Part shown: positions 6,818 to 52,913 of the stretch, piece by piece
How positions within the stretch are numbered: the stretch's first letter is position 1
How the letters are laid out: every line of letters begins with the position of its first letter
Sequence record: PQ871103.1
Strand: one strand, 5' to 3'
DNA from: Escherichia phage vB_Eco_ZCEC15
DNA length: 64,000 bases
The notes under the pieces: model-generated
Seen by the model: only the letters and a program-made list of their open reading frames with translations
Told to the model about the DNA's origin: nothing
The model's database searches: none
Translations under genes and position numbers: made by a program

Positions 6818-7069
6818 TCATTCCTTCTCTCTGATGATAATTACTTGATTTGGTTGTGCGGATTTTTTAGTTTCACCCGCAATTGACCAAATAAATGTAA
6901 TAAACCAACCAATAATTGACCAATTAAACAGTAAAGATGTGAAAAAGATTCCTACTGTCGATTTTGACCCGCGCATCAAGGCGATGAACCATGGAAGCAT
7001 GTATATAATAATAGCCAACACGCCTGAAACTAAAACCATAAAAATTGAACCTGCTACTAAAGTTTCCAT
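6818..7069 (-). CDS. imm: Imm superinfection immunity membrane protein, 83 aa
   Basis: Two hydrophobic helices, 83 aa, position downstream of 43. Confidence 0.8.
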   Translation of the reverse strand: METLVAGSIFMVLVSGVLAIIIYMLPWFIALMRGSKSTVGIFFTSLLFNWSIIGWFITFIWSIAGETKKSAQPNQVIIIREKE

Positions 7070-7076
7070 ATTTTCC

Positions 7077-27748: not shown

Positions 27749-28138
27749 TTAATTTCGCAATTTATTAAGTTCTTCATAATCAATCCAGGATTCTAGTCCT
27801 GATGGCAAATCAGATTCAATTTCCCAAAGAAGTTCTTCAATTTTCTGAAGACGATCTAATTCTTCAGCAGGAATAGTAACCATTGACGGAGTTCTTGATA
27901 CGCTAATATCGTAAATCATATTTACCCCCAGTTTGACCATACAATCGCCATATTTCCATTTAGAAATAGACTTTTCACCATTAGAATAATAAACTTCAAG
28001 TTTAGCACGATTATTTTTAATTTGAATAACCTTTGCTGTCATCAAAGTTCCATACCCATAATAAACTGTAACCTCATCACCTACATATACCGCGCTTCCG
28101 CGGTAGTCATGGATATAATCAGTTCCTTCGAGCATCAT
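27749..28138 (-). CDS. hypothetical protein, 129 aa
   Basis: ORF track. Confidence 0.55.
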   Translation of the reverse strand: MMLEGTDYIHDYRGSAVYVGDEVTVYYGYGTLMTAKVIQIKNNRAKLEVYYSNGEKSISKWKYGDCMVKLGVNMIYDISVSRTPSMVTIPAEELDRLQKIEELLWEIESDLPSGLESWIDYEELNKLRN

Positions 28139-28657: not shown

Positions 28658-28946
28658 ATCGGTGTTTACAATGACGACATTTATAACGAAGATTACTAGT
28701 CTGCCAATGAACTAATTGTACCTGTTCAGTACCGCATTCAGGACAATTAGGAACGCTTTTAGAAGCCCTTTCGCGACGTTCAACCATAGCCATAATGGCA
28801 TCCCAAGCTGGAGGTTTAAAATCTAAATCATCGCAACCATGAATCTTTCCACGCATTTCCAGATCGTCTTCTTCACCAGCCATAATAATTTTAATTAGAC
28901 TGGAATTACTTGAAGCTGCAATATCTTCTAATAAGCGCTTTTTCAT
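28629..28946 (-). CDS. zinc-ribbon protein, 105 aa
   Basis: CPECG...CRHCKH four-Cys motif. Confidence 0.55.
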
Positions 28947-29872
28947 TTCAATACCTCAATAGCATTACGTAAACCATTTGCTTTTGCATTAAGAGCTTTT
29001 AACAATTTGGTGTGTTCGGCAATCTGGGCTTCAACTTCAATTAAACGAGCATTGAGATATTCACGTTCTTCGCTCAGGTTATCAACCTTTTCTACTTTAG
29101 GTTCTTTTACAGCTGTCTTATATGTATTAGGGTTCTTCAGTTTAATTAGAATGCGTGAACTGTATAACATTGAACCATTATCTTCGGTTTCGTCATACAT
29201 TTCTACTACGTCCATGATTTTTAACATCATGCGGAGTTTATAAGACAACGAACGAATAGTTTTGTTGTGCTTATTAATTTCTCTAGAGTTCATGGTGCCG
29301 AGATTACGTGAGTAATAATAAGGAACCTGGATATTAATTAGCACTGATGAACCACCTGGCTTATGTGTTACTTCATCAGCAATAACCCAGTCCTTAACAT
29401 GAACTGTATTTGTACGGTCATCACCAGCAGTAAATAGTTTGCGAGCATGCTTAAAAAGCATATTCACTTGGGTATTGAATTGACAAGCAAATTGACAAGC
29501 AAATTTAGTTTCAGGAATGGTAGATAACCAATCAGCCAAATGGGTCTTTTTAACATCGTTAACAATAGTAAATTTAACCAAATCGGTTATAGATGTCGTA
29601 GATTTAATGAAGCTCGGCTTCATAAAGTTTTTAATGTTATCGCGAGCTACAGTAGAAGATAACATACGAGAACGTTTAAACCATTCAAGCAAATTGCCTA
29701 ACGAATGAGAATAAGCGTTTTGAGTATCTTTACAGATATGATTTTCCTGGCCAACATATTGAAGGAAATCACGAAGAATATTATTGATTACTGCTCTGTG
29801 TCCGATATTATAATTACGGTGTTTAGTAATAAGGCTGTCAAAATAATCAATATAATGTTTACGAGTTTTCAT
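28943..29872 (-). CDS. hypothetical protein, 309 aa, C-terminal coiled coil (paralogue family member 1)
   Basis: ORF track; C-terminal heptad-like region. Confidence 0.6.
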   Translation of the reverse strand: MKTRKHYIDYFDSLITKHRNYNIGHRAVINNILRDFLQYVGQENHICKDTQNAYSHSLGNLLEWFKRSRMLSSTVARDNIKNFMKPSFIKSTTSITDLVKFTIVNDVKKTHLADWLSTIPETKFACQFACQFNTQVNMLFKHARKLFTAGDDRTNTVHVKDWVIADEVTHKPGGSSVLINIQVPYYYSRNLGTMNSREINKHNKTIRSLSYKLRMMLKIMDVVEMYDETEDNGSMLYSSRILIKLKNPNTYKTAVKEPKVEKVDNLSEEREYLNARLIEVEAQIAEHTKLLKALNAKANGLRNAIEVLK

Positions 29873-29924
29873 GTTCTTCTCACTTGGTTAATGATTTATA
29901 CTCCGAGCCATCCTTGGCTTTAAA

Positions 29925-30926
29925 TTACTTAATTAACTGTAAAGCTTGTTCAAGACGATCCAGGCGATTAACAGATTCTTCCCAAATCCTTTTAGCTTGC
30001 TCATATTCTTTCTGCGCTTTATTAGAAATTTCTAGAACTTCTTTATAAGCTTTTTCTAATGCAATAACTTCTGGACGAATTTCTACCGGTTCAGGTGAAT
30101 CGTCAAGACATTCCATTAGTTCCTCAAGGGTAGTTTCTTCTTTAGGAGTATTCACAATTTCTTCACATTTTTGTTGATAAATTTCTTTATCAGTCGGTGA
30201 GTACGCACACTTTACTTCACGGAGACTAACTACAATTTTATATCCTTCCCAACCGCATATATTCTTAAAAGGATAAGTATGAATATTTTCTACTGTTTCC
30301 ATACAAAGTAATGCGGTCTCTAACTGACGAGTTATATCGCTAGCAATTGAGAAAAATTTATTAATGTTCTTTTGATTAGCTTCTGGTGTAAAAAATTCAT
30401 AATTCACAAAAATAGCTGCTTTATTTTTATCAAGTTCATATTCTTTTATGATAATCATATCAGAAGCCCAAGGATGAATTTGACGATAATCGCCATAGCA
30501 TAATTTAGAAGCTGATTTTAGAATTTGCTTTTTGAAAAGTCTGAAATTACTAATCCAACGACGAGTAAAAATATTCTTAGTGTCTTCTTTATTATTAAGA
30601 TGATATGAATTAACATCACCGAACCAATTATATCCTACTACATCTTTAGTTCGTTTAATTTCTTTCCCAAATTTACCGAGAATATCTTGGTTAACTAAAT
30701 ATGAAAGAAGACGAGAACCTTTGAAGGTTTCCTTAATATCATCTTTATATTCGCGACTAGAAATTTTATGAACTTCATGAATAAATTTGTTGGAAGAGAC
30801 AATACTTGCATCAGTATTATTGAGCCATTGATTGATAATGGAAATAACACTATTCTGACTAGACACAGGTTTAACTTTATCATCAATAACGCTATTGAAT
30901 GATTTGATATATTCGTTACGAGTCAT
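29925..30926 (-). CDS. hypothetical protein, about 333 aa from Met18, C-terminal coiled coil (paralogue 2)
   Basis: GAGGAG SD before ATG at 30926; motif RRWISNFRLFKKQILKSASKL shared with next ORF. Confidence 0.6.
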   Translation of the reverse strand: MTRNEYIKSFNSVIDDKVKPVSSQNSVISIINQWLNNTDASIVSSNKFIHEVHKISSREYKDDIKETFKGSRLLSYLVNQDILGKFGKEIKRTKDVVGYNWFGDVNSYHLNNKEDTKNIFTRRWISNFRLFKKQILKSASKLCYGDYRQIHPWASDMIIIKEYELDKNKAAIFVNYEFFTPEANQKNINKFFSIASDITRQLETALLCMETVENIHTYPFKNICGWEGYKIVVSLREVKCAYSPTDKEIYQQKCEEIVNTPKEETTLEELMECLDDSPEPVEIRPEVIALEKAYKEVLEISNKAQKEYEQAKRIWEESVNRLDRLEQALQLIK

Positions 30927-30983
30927 ATTAATCTCCTCAGTAGAAAGTAAGAACATTATACCACATCCTTGTGGCAAAGTAAA

Positions 30984-32006
30984 CTAGTTTAGTGCATTTA
31001 GTGCATTGTTCAGTTTAGAACGTTGCTTCGTAAGATTTTTGACTTTTTCTTGAGCTTTTTCTAGCATCTTTTCAGCTTCTAACACTTCATTAGTTGCTTT
31101 AACGAGTTCATCATCTACTGCCTTGATAGACTTCTCAATCGCATCCGCATGCCATTTTTCAACAGGTTTAAGACTCGGATTTTCAACAGGAAGAAAATTC
31201 ACTTTATTGAATTTCCATGCATCTTTATTACTTGAACTATACATCCAAAATTTAGGATCGTTTGATGAGTAATTGGATAAATTTAAGTTATCTTGCACTT
31301 CCTGCTTTTTCTCTTGTGGGACTTCGTCCTTTCTCAAAAAACCGTATTTAAATGAAACGATCATATCAAGTTCATACGTTGTTGTATGTTCCCAATTTCG
31401 CTCAAAATGAGGTAAAATCTTAGACTGAACAGCGGCAACAACATCCATATACTTAAATGCTTCTGTCAACTGTGATTTAAGGCATTCGCAAATTGAAAGA
31501 GAATTTTTTGTATTAGGTTTAAAGCTAATTCGCGCAGTTCTGTTATTTTCTTTTAATGGTCTTACTTCCATCTGAAGAGTATAACCATCAAATTTCAGGT
31601 TCTTTAAGTTAATGTCAGAACCTTTTAATCGACTAGCCGTCGACAAAATTTGCTTTAATTGTTTACGGAATAGAGCAATAAATCTCCATTCAAGACGGTA
31701 ATGATTTGGATTGAAAAATCCAGATGATAAATCGACCTTACTTTGGCCAACACCTTGAACAAATAGAGGATTTTTATAATCAATAGTTTTACAGAAATCA
31801 GTGAGCTGCTCACGAGCCGTCATTTGTGTAATATATCCTGCTTGGTTAAAATTGCGCACCCATTCACTGCTGTTCAGATGTTTAAAGGCATGAATGGAAC
31901 AATTAACTTTACCAAGGTCTAAATTATTTTCACACAAAAACGTCATAGCATCACGAGTATAGCTGGCATTACGAACCATATCTTCAATTTGAGAACGAGT
32001 TTTCAT
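30984..32006 (-). CDS. hypothetical protein, 340 aa, C-terminal coiled coil (paralogue 3)
   Basis: Motif RLEWRFIALFRKQLKQILSTASRL shared with previous ORF. Confidence 0.6.
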   Translation of the reverse strand: MKTRSQIEDMVRNASYTRDAMTFLCENNLDLGKVNCSIHAFKHLNSSEWVRNFNQAGYITQMTAREQLTDFCKTIDYKNPLFVQGVGQSKVDLSSGFFNPNHYRLEWRFIALFRKQLKQILSTASRLKGSDINLKNLKFDGYTLQMEVRPLKENNRTARISFKPNTKNSLSICECLKSQLTEAFKYMDVVAAVQSKILPHFERNWEHTTTYELDMIVSFKYGFLRKDEVPQEKKQEVQDNLNLSNYSSNDPKFWMYSSSNKDAWKFNKVNFLPVENPSLKPVEKWHADAIEKSIKAVDDELVKATNEVLEAEKMLEKAQEKVKNLTKQRSKLNNALNALN

Positions 32007-32014
32007 GGTATTCC

Positions 32015-32926
32015 TTAAGATTTAAGTAAATCGACAATTTTAATTAACTTTTCACGCTCAGATTTAGCTTTACTACTCAGTCCAGATAGTCTGAAAATTT
32101 CATCATCATATTGTTGAATAGAAATATTCAGCTCTTCAATCTGTTTATTAAAATAATCAATTTGTTCAGAATGTTTTTCGTTACTACGAACTGATACAGG
32201 TTTCGTAGGCAATGTAGTTGAACTGGATTCATCCGGGCGATAAATTAAAATACAACTTGAACCAATAGGGCATTTTGCACCAGATGAATATTCTAATGTT
32301 CCAGCTTCTTTTAAAACTTCAAAAGCTAAACAGAGATGATGCCCCATATTGACATAATCTGTAGAGCGAGCTCTGATATAATAATCATCTCCACGAATAC
32401 TAAATTTAAAGCATTTAAGGTCTTCTGTATTATTGGTCTTAAAAATCATTTGTTTATCTAGACCTTTAGCTAATCGAGCGCCTAATGCTAATAATCGTCT
32501 TTGATTTTCCCACAAATCCGCAATCATTTGATCGAATGATAATTTTGGCATTAGTCGACCATAAAGGTCATATCCTTTATTATAATTACGAAGGATTTCA
32601 CTCGCGTTAATACGAGACAATGCTCCAATTTTATTAAGGGCTTTCATAATGCGATTAGATAAACTCATTCCAGATCCGTTTGTTCGCTGCAAATGTTTTT
32701 CTAATCCAAATCCAATATCAACTTTAAACTTATCTAAAATTTCTGCATGAACATCTCTGTCAATAACATTCAAATCCAAAGTTGGGTTAAATCTATGAAA
32801 AAATTTATCCGGCTCTCCACGGCGAAATACAGTCCATTCATTCATCATTTTTTTATTAACTAAAGATTTAATTACTGCATTGACATTATTAATTACTACT
32901 GACATATTTTCCTCACTCAATTTCAA
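32015..32926 (-). CDS. hypothetical protein, 303 aa, C-terminal coiled coil (paralogue 4)
   Basis: ORF track. Confidence 0.6.
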   Translation of the reverse strand: MKLSEENMSVVINNVNAVIKSLVNKKMMNEWTVFRRGEPDKFFHRFNPTLDLNVIDRDVHAEILDKFKVDIGFGLEKHLQRTNGSGMSLSNRIMKALNKIGALSRINASEILRNYNKGYDLYGRLMPKLSFDQMIADLWENQRRLLALGARLAKGLDKQMIFKTNNTEDLKCFKFSIRGDDYYIRARSTDYVNMGHHLCLAFEVLKEAGTLEYSSGAKCPIGSSCILIYRPDESSSTTLPTKPVSVRSNEKHSEQIDYFNKQIEELNISIQQYDDEIFRLSGLSSKAKSEREKLIKIVDLLKS

Positions 32927-33375: not shown

Positions 33376-33903
33376 TTATGCGAGTACCGTCTTTAACCGT
33401 TCTTCAAACTTCCGAAGAGTATTTTGGCGTTCAGCTCTTTGCTTTTTGTAAGTTTCAATACGCTCTGAAATGAGAGTGTATCGTTCATTTACTGATTCTT
33501 TCATAAAATCAGGAATTTCACGAGAAGCTTTAATCTCGTCAAATTTATCAATAACAGCTTGCTCTTCAGCAATTAAGTTATCATACATTAAAATATCTTT
33601 CTTGATGAACTCAATATCTTCTTGAGTTACACGAGATAATTTAGATGCTTTATCCTTTTTGTACTGTTCGTTAGTATCACGAGACCAGTGTAATGTACGA
33701 TTTTTATTCGTATTCTTGTAAATTTCTACAATACCGATCTCATCAATAATAACGATCCAATTCCAACGGGATTTGTAAATTTGTCCTCCATCAACAGTGA
33801 TTTCACCTCCGATTGAGATGTCATTAAAGAACTTGCTTTGTGCCTCAGATTTAAATTTACCATCGTTGTAATTTACCAAGTTGAAAATATCTTTAGCGTT
33901 CAT
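33376..33903 (-). CDS. hypothetical protein, 175 aa
   Basis: ORF track; early promoter module and SD upstream. Confidence 0.6.
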   Translation of the reverse strand: MNAKDIFNLVNYNDGKFKSEAQSKFFNDISIGGEITVDGGQIYKSRWNWIVIIDEIGIVEIYKNTNKNRTLHWSRDTNEQYKKDKASKLSRVTQEDIEFIKKDILMYDNLIAEEQAVIDKFDEIKASREIPDFMKESVNERYTLISERIETYKKQRAERQNTLRKFEERLKTVLA

Positions 33904-35405: not shown

Positions 35406-35669
35406 TTATTTTAGTGTTTGCCAAATTTTTACTGCTTCGCGACGAGATACTTCTACAGCTCCAAGTTCTACGGCTTTTTGACGTCGGCGAGCATGTAAGT
35501 CATAATGTTTAATGCGTTTATCTTGAAACCAAGAACGTTTCATTCCTATTGCTTCTGCCATTTCATGGAGCTCTTCAATATCTCCATCAGTGAACATATG
35601 ACAATTTTTAGTTAGATGACCGCGAAGTTTCCATCCATGATTCATTAAAACATCTACGTAAACTGTCAT
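35406..35669 (-). CDS. small protein, 87 aa, DUF4031-like
   Basis: Motif pattern GMKRSWFQ...HYDL...GA resembles the DUF4031 family as I recall it; stop overlaps upstream gene by 4 nt. Confidence 0.5.
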   Translation of the reverse strand: MTVYVDVLMNHGWKLRGHLTKNCHMFTDGDIEELHEMAEAIGMKRSWFQDKRIKHYDLHARRRQKAVELGAVEVSRREAVKIWQTLK

Positions 35670-36859
35670 TGATTCTGCTCCAAATATGTTTCTATAATTT
35701 TCTGAGCGAGATAAACTGCGTTATCTTCAGTTGCATCTTCTAAGAAATTTTCAAAATAAGCTGAAATTTCTTCTGTGTCAATCAACTTTTTTACTTCAAT
35801 TAACGTAGTTTTCATTTTATTCCCCAAATCCGTATCAGTTGATAGTTGTATAGTACCATATCGGTGGTTTTCAAGATAAACCCTCTCAAGGAAGTCATCC
35901 CAGAACCCCATGTCTACTTTTTGCTGCATACCGTTCTTAGAAGCTTCAATGGATGCTGCTTCTACTTGATCGACCACATCTTCCAAAAACTCTTGAACCG
36001 TTTTAAATGGATGTTTACCCAGCTTCACGTCGAGAATAAATGAAGCATCTTGAAGTGGATAGACCAAGTCACCAGTTTTGTAAATTTCCAATAGTTGGAG
36101 TCCACCACGACAAGCATGACTCAGGGCTTTCCAGTCAATGCCCTCATTCGCCTCAGCCTTACGAGCACGTTCGCCGTATTCAGCATCTAATTTGTTCAGT
36201 GACTGCTTAAGCTCAATAAGAGAAAGCGTTGTCTGATATTTACGACCCAACACCGTATAGAATGTTTGTGGGCCTGTTTTCTCATGATTATGGAATACCC
36301 ATTCACAGAATTCGTTTTCTGGAAGACGATGCTTAATATCTTCTACCTTAGTCCGACGTAAACGATCTGGAATGCCTTCTTGATAATCAACCCATTGTTC
36401 AGGAATCTGGTTAACAATTTCCAATACACCACGCAGTGCAGCCAATCGAGAACCCTTAACGCCGTATTTAGAAGCTTGCTTGCGAACATATCCTAAATAG
36501 GATTTCATGTTAGTCGTATAAAAACGAGAACGATTGTCTTGAACAAATTTCCATACATCAGGCAAATCAGATTTAACTACCAGTTCAGGTGGAGTGTGGA
36601 GCATATCCAATGCTACAGTTTCACCATCTGCTGCTAATTTAAAGAAATACTTAAGACTGTATAGTTCATGGTCAATATCATCTTTAGTGTTTTTAGATGA
36701 TGTGCTGTTAGTGTTTTTACTCATATGCTCTTTAACATTTCCGATAAGAATATCACGAGCAGGAGGAACAAAGATTTCTTTAAAATCTACATCAGATTCT
36801 GGAGTAGAAGTTCCATAAAGATGACTACCAAAATAGCTTTTCATTACTGTTTTCATCAT
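35666..36859 (-). CDS. Pol-beta-superfamily nucleotidyltransferase-like protein, 397 aa
   Basis: N-terminal GS-x8-DVD motif (YFGSHLYGTSTPESDVDF) typical of minimal nucleotidyltransferases. Confidence 0.6.
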   Translation of the reverse strand: MMKTVMKSYFGSHLYGTSTPESDVDFKEIFVPPARDILIGNVKEHMSKNTNSTSSKNTKDDIDHELYSLKYFFKLAADGETVALDMLHTPPELVVKSDLPDVWKFVQDNRSRFYTTNMKSYLGYVRKQASKYGVKGSRLAALRGVLEIVNQIPEQWVDYQEGIPDRLRRTKVEDIKHRLPENEFCEWVFHNHEKTGPQTFYTVLGRKYQTTLSLIELKQSLNKLDAEYGERARKAEANEGIDWKALSHACRGGLQLLEIYKTGDLVYPLQDASFILDVKLGKHPFKTVQEFLEDVVDQVEAASIEASKNGMQQKVDMGFWDDFLERVYLENHRYGTIQLSTDTDLGNKMKTTLIEVKKLIDTEEISAYFENFLEDATEDNAVYLAQKIIETYLEQNQ

Positions 36860-51692: not shown

Positions 51693-52358
51693 TTAAAATT
51701 TCATTTTTCTACCTTTAAACCATCCTTCTGGAATTGGGTCAGTTTTCTTAATACGTTTAGAAACTTTTTCATCTAATGAATGAATCCACATCATACCAAA
51801 TTGGGAATTCTTTTCACCTTGTTGGTGTTTATTTTTGGCGTGAGATTCTTTCATTTTATTAATAGTTTCAGGAGTATGATGCTTATTTAAAAATCTGCTA
51901 TTATTTAAAAATTTTTCCCTGTATTCAGGAGTTGACCACAAACGTTTAAATACATTTGAACCATGTTTACGATATTTTTCTTGAAGTAAAATATCATTTT
52001 TAAAACGTGACTTAAACGATTTAGCTCCTTTTAAACTAGCGTCTTTCTTCTGATTTAGCATCTCAGGAATATTTATATGGTCCCATCCACCTTCACCACC
52101 AAGTTTTAAATTATACACATCTGGTCTATTTAAAAACTCTTCTGTGACAATATTTTTCTCGGCTTCAAGCATAGATTCTTTATCATCAAAATACTCTAAT
52201 ATTTCTTTAGAGAAATTTTCTATACCATACTTGTCTTGGGCTCTTTTTAATAATTTACCAGAACCCATATATCCATCATCTAAATTTTCGGTAGAATGCA
52301 CACCAATATAAATTTTATTATTAATTTTATTTGTTATTTTATAAGTGTAATGGAACAT
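51693..52358 (-). CDS. segB: GIY-YIG homing endonuclease SegB, 221 aa
   Basis: YTYKITNKINNKIYIGVHS motif; sits between tRNA subclusters as in T4. Confidence 0.85.
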   Translation of the reverse strand: MFHYTYKITNKINNKIYIGVHSTENLDDGYMGSGKLLKRAQDKYGIENFSKEILEYFDDKESMLEAEKNIVTEEFLNRPDVYNLKLGGEGGWDHINIPEMLNQKKDASLKGAKSFKSRFKNDILLQEKYRKHGSNVFKRLWSTPEYREKFLNNSRFLNKHHTPETINKMKESHAKNKHQQGEKNSQFGMMWIHSLDEKVSKRIKKTDPIPEGWFKGRKMKF

Positions 52359-52418
52359 AAATATCTCCTATTTCTAAGAGTATTTATGTTCCCAAAATAT
52401 GGCCCTGGGTGGAATTGA

Positions 52419-52490
52419 ACCACCATCTGGCGATTATGAGTCGCTTGCTTGAACCTTCCAGCTACAGGGCCTTGGTGCTGATTGACGGAA
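52419..52490 (-). tRNA. tRNA-Ile (anticodon CAU, lysidine type), CCA not encoded
   Basis: Acceptor GGCCCTG/CAGGGCC, T-arm GGTTCAATTCC, anticodon loop CTCATAA. Confidence 0.7.
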
Positions 52491-52491
52491 T

Positions 52492-52567
52492 CGAACCGCC
52501 GACGTCCTCATTACAAGTGAGGTGCTCTACCTACTGAGCTAAATCAGCGAAATTACGGAGGCGATAG
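52492..52567 (-). tRNA. tRNA-Thr (anticodon UGU), CCA encoded
   Basis: Acceptor GCTGATT/AATCAGC, anticodon loop CTTGTAA. Confidence 0.8.
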
Positions 52568-52574
52568 GATTTGA

Positions 52575-52661
52575 ACCTATGAGTCGCCGGAGCGACTGCC
52601 GGTTTTCAAGACCGGTGCATTAAACCACTCTGCCACGCCTCCAGTCTCCATACAAGGATTT
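52575..52661 (-). tRNA. tRNA-Ser (anticodon UGA), long variable arm
   Basis: Acceptor GGAGGCG/CGCCTCC, anticodon loop CTTGAAA. Confidence 0.8.
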
Positions 52662-52663
52662 GA

Positions 52664-52821
<158 letters not shown>

Positions 52822-52826
52822 GGACT

Positions 52827-52913
52827 CGAACCCACAAGGAAATCATTCCGCAGCATTTTAAGTGCTGTGCCTTTACCAATTTGACCATTCTCGCGCTGGG
52901 AATAAAGGACTCG
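52827..52913 (-). tRNA. tRNA-Leu (anticodon UAA), long variable arm, CCA encoded
   Basis: Acceptor GCGAGAA/TTCTCGC, anticodon loop CTTAAAA. Confidence 0.8.

Follow-up and report, generated by a model that had tools for sequence, protein, structure and literature searches.

Four tandem genes between nrdC and nrdC.10

We analyzed a 64,000-nucleotide stretch of the genome of Escherichia phage vB_Eco_ZCEC15 (PQ871103.1), referred to here as the window, with a focus on four consecutive minus-strand open reading frames (ORFs). A preliminary description of the sequence had read them as a tandem, locally amplified family of diverging paralogues with C-terminal coiled coils, typical of host-interaction or anti-defence genes under diversifying selection. 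The sequence is that of a T4-like phage of the genus Tequatrovirus. Comparison with the T4 reference annotation identified the four ORFs, which are arranged as described, as orthologues of nrdC.3, nrdC.4, nrdC.5, and nrdC.6, which form a four-gene array between nrdC (thioredoxin) and nrdC.10. The 3,984-bp array segment has matches in 655 phage records, nearly all from T4-like phages of Escherichia, Shigella, and Yersinia, and the best match is 99.3% identical. These are long-annotated T4 genes, one of which has a published function; the link that joins all four into one family appears to be new.

Identity to the T4 counterparts is 60% for NrdC.3, 90% for NrdC.4, 91% for NrdC.5 (across residues 1–331), and 98% for NrdC.6, with values of 98%–99% for flanking genes. 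Earlier start codons would lengthen NrdC.4 to 343 or 350 amino acids. These longer versions are unlikely because the alternative ATG overlaps the -10 element of an early promoter in the spacer. In the T4 reference (NC_000866), nrdC.6 (~52066–52893) is annotated as a protein of 275 amino acids, and the tail (DISIQQYDDEIFRLSGLSSKAKSEREKLIKIVDLLKS) lies in another frame just after ...QIEEL. This is a one-base frameshift or sequencing error in the reference; nrdC.6 is full-length (891 nt) in a re-annotated laboratory T4 genome.

Searches by sequence in Pfam, PDB, and PHROGs identified no known domain in the four proteins beyond domains of unknown function (DUFs) defined on the families themselves. 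Noise-level matches to Phage_int_SAM_1, DUF3905, and designed helical repeats in these searches were dismissed as meaningless. The NrdC.5 ORF matches Pfam PF23882 (DUF7235) over its full length (E = 2.7e-126, 421.6 bits with a cut-off of 30), and a Pfam scan found no match to this model in the NrdC.3, NrdC.4, or NrdC.6 ORFs. NrdC.3 and NrdC.4 both have full-length matches to phrog_1435 (E = 9e-115 and 3e-164), and their homologues bear a precomputed PF26897 assignment. The NrdC.6 ORF (32015–32926) matches phrog_2257 (E = 5e-151), and its homologues bear PF26899. Pfam thus splits the four proteins into three families (PF26897, PF23882, and PF26899), and PHROGs unites NrdC.3 and NrdC.4 only.

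Long heptad-like C-terminal regions, another element of the preliminary description, were recovered in every one of the proteins. A single heptad register runs through the last 49 residues in each case, with 86%–93% hydrophobic residues at positions a and d, compared to 17%–29% elsewhere (composition-preserving shuffle, P ≤ 0.003 in all four). Every tail has the continuous register, hydrophobic a/d positions, and five or more heptads expected of a coiled coil. In AlphaFold2 models, the NrdC.4 tail is predicted as a single 48-residue helix (residues 284–331) and the NrdC.6 tail as a helical hairpin (helices 242–272 and 278–295). When distant orthologues of NrdC.3, NrdC.4, or NrdC.6 are compared, conservation is highest in the tail (62%–78% identity), whereas the α/β core has 40%–48% identity and is the most variable region in NrdC.3 and NrdC.4. 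The tails are therefore not low-complexity filler. The tail is also the most conserved region between two divergent alleles of nrdC.3 (see below).

Sequence and structural relationships among the four proteins

Common ancestry of all four proteins is probable. The link is firm for NrdC.3 and NrdC.4, good for NrdC.5, and weakest for NrdC.6, which is connected through structure and bridged profiles. NrdC.4 is the hub that ties the other three together by sequence and structure. Only one pair, NrdC.3 and NrdC.4, was significant in direct BLASTP comparisons among the four (E = 3e-6 across 226 residues). Profiles were therefore compared using HHalign on family alignments thinned to ≤90% identity, with unrelated neighbouring proteins as controls, all of which had E values > 0.009. 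NrdC.3 and NrdC.4 aligned with 97.6% probability both at full length (E = 5e-12) and without tails (E = 2.7e-12, 224 columns). Full-length profiles of NrdC.4 and NrdC.5 (71 and 67 homologues) aligned with 84.7% probability (E = 6.6e-6) over 230 collinear columns, and still did so without tails (62.8%, E = 7e-5, 160 columns). Including syntenic homologues of Klebsiella phage GF, Yersinia phage fHe-Yen9-01, and Citrobacter phage Moon as bridges raised the NrdC.4–NrdC.5 probability to 93.7% (E = 2e-7).

These comparisons bear on whether the resemblance is nothing more than coiled-coil or low-complexity composition and chance, as the number of nonsignificant BLASTP pairs might suggest. That explanation is ruled out for NrdC.3, NrdC.4, and NrdC.5 by the collinear alignments of 160–224 columns that remain once the tails are removed, and structural evidence for NrdC.4 and NrdC.6 also agrees with homology. 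We give it almost no weight for the array as a whole. The paralogy proposed in the preliminary description is upheld in this respect, as similarity extends beyond coiled-coil composition for the NrdC.3–NrdC.4 and NrdC.4–NrdC.5 pairs.

NrdC.6 was linked to the family through bridges from Karamvirus and Tegunavirus relatives, which individually matched NrdC.6 with E values of 3.7e-5 and 1.5e-3. The bridged profiles of NrdC.4 and NrdC.6 aligned with 81.4% probability (E = 1.2e-5), pairing NrdC.4 residues 28–173 with NrdC.6 residues 42–178. This alignment pairs exactly the helix pair and first β-hairpin predicted in the models, as well as both shared motifs described below. AlphaFold2 models for NrdC.4 (predicted local distance difference test score, 80) and NrdC.6 (75) have a common order of elements: a helical N-terminal domain, a small β element, a helix pair, a β-β-α-β-β unit, a linker, and a C-terminal helix. 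Among the matches listed for each model in BFVD, seven are common to both (304–346 amino acids), from phages of Acinetobacter, Klebsiella, Enterobacter, Pectobacterium, and Serratia.

An alternative is that NrdC.3, NrdC.4, and NrdC.5 are true paralogues and that NrdC.6 is an unrelated neighbour of similar size with an independently gained coiled-coil tail. Direct profile comparisons of NrdC.6 with the other three are not significant outside the tail (E = 0.07–0.37), Pfam and PHROGs both keep it as a separate family, and the Foldseek match of the NrdC.4 model to the BFVD model of JS10 NrdC.6 has template modelling scores of just 0.43 and 0.49 with a large root-mean-square deviation. The same Foldseek match, however, has a probability of 1.0 (E = 5.5e-5). 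Two independent models share seven BFVD matches and an identical order of secondary structure, including the helix pair followed by β-β-α-β-β, and the bridged profiles align those elements and both motifs. In addition, the position of the NrdC.6 gene is syntenic across every genus examined. We therefore regard an unrelated NrdC.6 as quite improbable and include it in the family.

Each of the four proteins contains two shared motifs, and their order is constant. The motif that had been noted in the middle two proteins, here motif 2, is real: residues 124–148 of NrdC.4 and 107–132 of NrdC.5 are mutually aligned by HHalign, and diverged versions occur in NrdC.3 (residues 132–153) and NrdC.6 (residues 127–151). 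In both models, motif 2 forms the helix pair immediately preceding the β-β-α-β-β core. Motif 1 is located upstream of motif 2, and its versions across the four proteins are FKRSRMLSSTVARDNIKNF, FKGSRLLSYLVNQDILGKF, FNQAGYITQMTAREQLTDF, and LNKIGALSRINASEILRNY. The models of NrdC.4 and NrdC.6 suggest a plan in which an N-terminal helical domain carrying motif 1 precedes the motif 2 helix pair, which leads into the β-β-α-β-β core, a variable linker, and a coiled-coil tail of ~50 residues. Based on profile comparison, NrdC.3 and NrdC.5 likely follow the same plan. Coordinates for the genes, tails, motifs, and a predicted promoter are in Table 1.

Table 1. Positions in the window of the four genes and of features assigned to them
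Feature	Position	Strand	Basis or remark
nrdC.3 orthologue (paralogue A)	28943..29872	-	309 aa; ORF and T4 match
NrdC.3 C-terminal heptad tail, aa 261-309	28946..29092	-	Heptad test P = 0.003
Motif 2 counterpart in NrdC.3	29414-29479	-	HHalign
Motif 1 counterpart in NrdC.3	29618-29680	-	
nrdC.4 orthologue (paralogue B)	29925..30926	-	333 aa from ATG behind a Shine-Dalgarno sequence
NrdC.4 C-terminal heptad tail, aa 285-333	29928..30074	-	Heptad test P < 0.0005
Motif 2 in NrdC.4 (WISNFRLFKKQILKSASKLCYGDYR)	30483..30557	-	Aligned by HHalign
Motif 1 in NrdC.4 (FKGSRLLSYLVNQDILGKFGK)	30663..30725	-	Profile alignment
Predicted T4-type early promoter, GTTTAC-N14-GTGGTATAAT	30955..30983	-	nrdC.5-nrdC.4 spacer; consensus scan
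nrdC.5 orthologue (paralogue C)	30984..32006	-	340 aa; DUF7235
NrdC.5 C-terminal heptad tail, aa 292-340	30987..31133	-	P < 0.0005; 93% hydrophobic at a/d
Motif 2 counterpart in NrdC.5	31611-31688	-	HHalign
Motif 1 counterpart in NrdC.5	31788-31850	-	
nrdC.6 orthologue (paralogue D)	32015..32905	-	296 aa from ATG; 303 aa from TTG at 32926
NrdC.6 helical-hairpin/heptad tail, aa 242-296	32018..32182	-	Heptad test P < 0.0005
Motif 2 counterpart in NrdC.6	32453-32527	-	HHalign
Motif 1 counterpart in NrdC.6	32576-32638	-	

Distribution, evolutionary rate, and expression

The family is restricted to Straboviridae, and it appears narrow at the sequence level. A HMMER profile of NrdC.3 and NrdC.4 recovered 10 proteins among 1.84 billion cluster representatives, all of which are close relatives or fragments, and gave no link to NrdC.5 or NrdC.6 in this set. 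Locus searches using single proteins returned close Tequatrovirus loci only; alignment-based scans gave more. Copy number ranges from one to four by genus, with four in Tequatrovirus. Ten loci from Dhaka-, Gapriver-, and related phages have three copies (nrdC.6, nrdC.5, and nrdC.4) and lack nrdC.3. In Moonvirus, the slot contains one large candidate gene (~336 amino acids). In Acinetobacter phage Acj61, a tandem pair, p120 (330 amino acids) and p121 (304 amino acids), is located between nrdC and nrdC.10 and appears, from protein lengths and consecutive UniProt accessions, to correspond to E5E4A1 and E5E4A2 of the structural searches. Single-sequence HHalign comparisons of Acj61 p118, p120, and p121 and of the DLP1 candidates with the family profiles were not significant, so membership of these proteins is assigned through Foldseek only. 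No literature was found that describes the four genes as one family or reports their architecture, which is weak evidence of novelty given that the searchable literature is incomplete.

The ten three-copy loci (L011–L020, ~6840–7070) also have a conserved ORF of 71 amino acids between nrdC.6 and nrdC.5, which is not found in Tequatrovirus and encodes a protein with two hydrophobic segments. It was considered as a split N terminus of NrdC.5 and ruled out, as it encodes a separate membrane protein with two transmembrane segments. In Tequatrovirus, the membrane protein NrdC.7 sits on the other side of nrdC.6.

The family and its genomic position are older than the split between Tevenvirinae and Twarogvirinae. 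Paralogous copies are at most 25% identical, and tandem structural relatives occur in the same slot of Acj61, so the duplications are ancient and local amplification as a recent event, as first described, does not fit the array. Diversifying selection was not borne out either. Pairwise, gene-wide ratios of nonsynonymous to synonymous substitution rates (dN/dS, Nei-Gojobori) are 0.19–0.31 for nrdC.3, 0.09–0.33 for nrdC.4, 0.07–0.20 for nrdC.5, and 0.04–0.15 for nrdC.6. They are above the values of 0–0.09 for the flanking genes (49, nrdC, nrdC.8, nrdC.9, and nrdC.10) and never exceed 1. The array is thus under weaker constraint or has faster protein evolution than its flanks, and positive selection is not demonstrated gene-wide.

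Two deep alleles of nrdC.3 occur in Tequatrovirus, with 60% amino acid identity between the window and three other loci (L001, L007, and L009). Synonymous divergence (dS) between these alleles is ~1.1, far above the 0.1–0.3 observed for neighbouring genes, which points to allele replacement by recombination. The adjoining nrdC.2 is also mosaic (64%–87% identity). Disrupted copies of nrdC.4 were identified in several phages: it is split into ORFs of 193 and 158 amino acids in a Tequatrovirus contig from IMG/VR (L014, 7968–9000), and in BFVD it is found only as fragments of 155 and 158 amino acids in T2 (A0A2Z5WKJ2) and phage G8 (A0A482N302). This pattern suggests that nrdC.4 has been pseudogenized repeatedly. 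Two further homologues are rearranged. One (P0114) is a chimera of NrdC.5 (~residues 147–275) and NrdC.3 (~residues 137–309), formed by a deletion that takes out nrdC.4 and with the joint at a short FN..VN microhomology. The other (P0115), the 378-amino-acid NrdC.6 of Shigella phage Sf25, has an internal tandem duplication of ~82 residues that includes the β-α-β core and extends into the first part of the tail.

A T4-type early promoter was predicted in the spacer between nrdC.5 and nrdC.4. It has 10 of 12 consensus matches and an extended -10, and the annotation of phage ASO78A places a T4 early promoter at this site as well. This promoter is predicted to drive nrdC.4 and probably nrdC.3 as well. 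A consensus sigma-70 scan gave 24 sites compared to 28 in shuffled sequence, with no excess, and of the sites in the promoter scan only the one that fits the T4 early-promoter consensus was retained. The spacer between nrdC.4 and nrdC.3 (29873–29924, minus strand) has a short hairpin (CCAAGGATGGCTCGG) followed by TATAAATC. The latter differs at one base from the T4 late-promoter consensus (TATAAATA), so late transcription of nrdC.3 is possible as well.

Anti-defence associations and a candidate mechanism

A function in countering host defences has been reported for one member of the family. A T4 deletion mutant was unable to grow on E. coli ECOR17, and deletion of the SIR2 defence gene dsr1 restored growth (PMC9391042). 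Plasmid-expressed T4 NrdC.5 restored plating of the deletion phage on dsr1 cells (Srikant, Guegler and Laub, eLife 2022, PMC9391042). Dsr1 has a TPR sensor domain, common with Avs7, that recognizes phage major capsid proteins (PMC12803255). The 340-amino-acid ORF in the window is the orthologue of T4 NrdC.5 and is found in the same genomic position; its architecture and both motifs recur in the other three ORFs, which lack the DUF7235 match. Dsr1 as the target is a genetic demonstration for the T4 orthologue and not for the protein of vB_Eco_ZCEC15.

Genes on both sides of the array have also been tied to defence. Gp49.2 inhibits OLD (PMC13096335). NrdC.1 inhibits Septu and Bas37_0203 inhibits Druantia III (bioRxiv 10.1101/2025.11.20.689424). 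The supplementary gene table lists bas37_0203 as a 528-nt gene right after the nrdC.7 position, and by this size and position Bas37_0203 is the NrdC.8 orthologue. The nrdC.8 orthologue in the window (33376–33903, minus strand) encodes 175 amino acids, agreeing in size and position with bas37_0203, and has a heptad-like, charged C-terminal tail. Despite this tail and the anti-Druantia III activity of its orthologue, NrdC.8 was ruled out as a truncated family member (HHalign E = 0.04–0.46). Gp49.2, NrdC.1, and NrdC.8 resemble the array genes in belonging to the same early, non-essential, hypervariable nrdC–nrdC.10 region and in having functions found by genetics, and they differ in being small, unrelated proteins. 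In the same preprint, nrdC.3 to nrdC.6 and their Bas37 counterparts are classed as non-essential in T4 and Bas37 transposon libraries (bioRxiv 10.1101/2025.11.20.689424).

The reading we favour, with moderate confidence, is that the four genes are ancient, diverged paralogues that serve as accessory early genes in an anti-defence island and encode stoichiometric inhibitors of immune sensors. In this model, the proteins would be made early in infection and assembled into oligomers by their coiled coils. Their rapidly evolving globular domains would attach to an immune sensor of the host and block it ahead of the late structural proteins that trigger it. The target of NrdC.5 would be Dsr1, a SIR2 NADase with a TPR sensor for the major capsid protein, and NrdC.3, NrdC.4, and NrdC.6 would act against different sensors or against variants of sensors of this kind. 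The model builds on what the analysis shows, namely the paralogy, architecture, early promoter, dispensability, and elevated evolutionary rate of the array, and direct binding and a role for oligomerization are what we infer. DSAD1 of phage SPbeta offers a possible mechanistic model for NrdC.5 by analogy. It neutralizes DSR2, a NADase that also combines SIR2 with a repeat sensor, by binding the sensor region that otherwise recognizes a late structural protein (PMC10973363, PMC11087589). It differs in that DSR2 senses the tail tube and in coming from another phage lineage.

The anti-defence role raised in the preliminary description is thus partly supported, mostly from the literature: the activity of T4 NrdC.5 against Dsr1, the anti-defence neighbours, and the dispensability of the genes agree with it, and for NrdC.3, NrdC.4, and NrdC.6 the activity is something we infer from these. 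Several observations count against the model. The first concern the family itself. Direct comparison of the NrdC.6 and NrdC.4 profiles without bridges was not significant (E = 0.07–0.09), the bridging sequences were hand-picked and bring some circularity to the NrdC.6 link, and that link relies on a moderate Foldseek score together with the bridged profiles. NrdC.5 was not among the best 50 BFVD matches of either the NrdC.4 or the NrdC.6 model. Others concern function. About 9% of positions in NrdC.5 of the window, along with its last nine residues, do not agree with the T4 protein that was tested, and no reports of direct NrdC.5–Dsr1 binding or NADase inhibition were found in the searchable literature. 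No significant conditional phenotype for NrdC.3, NrdC.4, or NrdC.6 was seen in the accessible HIDEN-SEQ results, and the dN/dS values of the array give no positive sign of an arms race.

Some of these observations would also be expected if the family is real but not mainly anti-defence. The proteins could have another accessory early role, such as host takeover, nucleoid or membrane remodelling, or regulation of assembly through a core resembling tail terminators, and the effect of NrdC.5 on Dsr1 would then be a side effect or the specialization of a single member. Consistent with this, three of the four copies lack a defence-related phenotype in the accessible data, purifying selection is gene-wide throughout, and the core resembles a virion assembly protein. 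Against it, genetics has demonstrated a specific anti-defence activity for one member, and the array has anti-defence genes on either side. None of the four genes is required in the laboratory strain with which the libraries were studied, as would be expected of host-range genes. Variable copy number, deep alleles, and pseudogenized copies are typical of accessory counter-defence loci, and early promoter control speaks against a role in assembly. We consider a different accessory role unlikely, if less so than an unrelated origin of NrdC.6, and retain the sensor-inhibitor model.

The resemblance of the core to tail terminators is a structural hint. Scores on such a small α/β domain are insufficient for homology, and the aligned length would fit the modelled α/β core. 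No tail-terminator family was identified by sequence in a Pfam scan (E up to 1) or in PDB sequence searches. The four proteins were rejected as tail terminators themselves because they have an early promoter, are located between nrdC and nrdC.10, are non-essential, and match no such sequence family. Known tail terminator or completion proteins (lambda gpU, T5 p142, the Mu and pyocin collar proteins, and SPP1 gp17-like proteins) have no sequence similarity to them, and unlike these the NrdC genes are early, non-essential, and outside the tail module, with extra helical and coiled-coil parts. A more speculative version of the sensor-inhibitor model, which we regard as a long shot, is that the core is a tail-terminator-like domain copied long ago from a virion module and re-used as an early decoy that plugs TPR sensors without activating them. 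It is of interest because repeat-type bacterial sensors recognize conserved virion proteins, and one sensor family, Avs15, recognizes the tail terminator itself. The coiled-coil-assembled paralogues would then show a surface like that of structural proteins, and the array would be a battery of late-protein mimics, with NrdC.5 directed at Dsr1 and NrdC.3, NrdC.4, and NrdC.6 at Avs-type or other sensors of virion proteins.

The T4 internal proteins IPI, IPII, and IPIII provide a further comparison. They are likewise a diverged, dispensable set in T-even phages whose individual members counter individual host defences. They are packaged in the capsid via a targeting sequence and injected, whereas the NrdC proteins lack a signal of this kind and are under an early promoter. 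No lytic phage has been studied better than T4, but functions have not been assigned to most of its genes between nrdC and tk. As distant paralogues of NrdC.5 that are widely conserved in T-even phages, NrdC.3, NrdC.4, and NrdC.6 are specific candidates for counter-defence screens, and the conserved tail and variable globular domains suggest which parts to swap or truncate for mapping target specificity. Occurrence in the same slot from Escherichia to Acinetobacter phages, in one to four copies, makes the family a ready-made series in which to follow the growth of counter-defence repertoires. If true, the tail-terminator resemblance would tie anti-defence proteins to imitation of those virion proteins that sensors detect.

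Other genes near the array also vary. An ORF of 129 amino acids (27749–28138, minus strand) lies between 49.2 and nrdC in place of T4 gene 49.3 (102 amino acids) and has no tblastn match to the T4 locus, which looks like a gene replacement in a stretch rich in anti-defence genes. The nrdC.11 end of the region is variable too. The nrdC.11 orthologue (35666–36859, minus strand; 397 amino acids) is only 82% identical to that of T4. Directly downstream, an ORF of 87 amino acids (35406–35669, minus strand) overlaps the end of nrdC.11 and may be the counterpart of a DUF4031 gene annotated in Citrobacter phage Moon.

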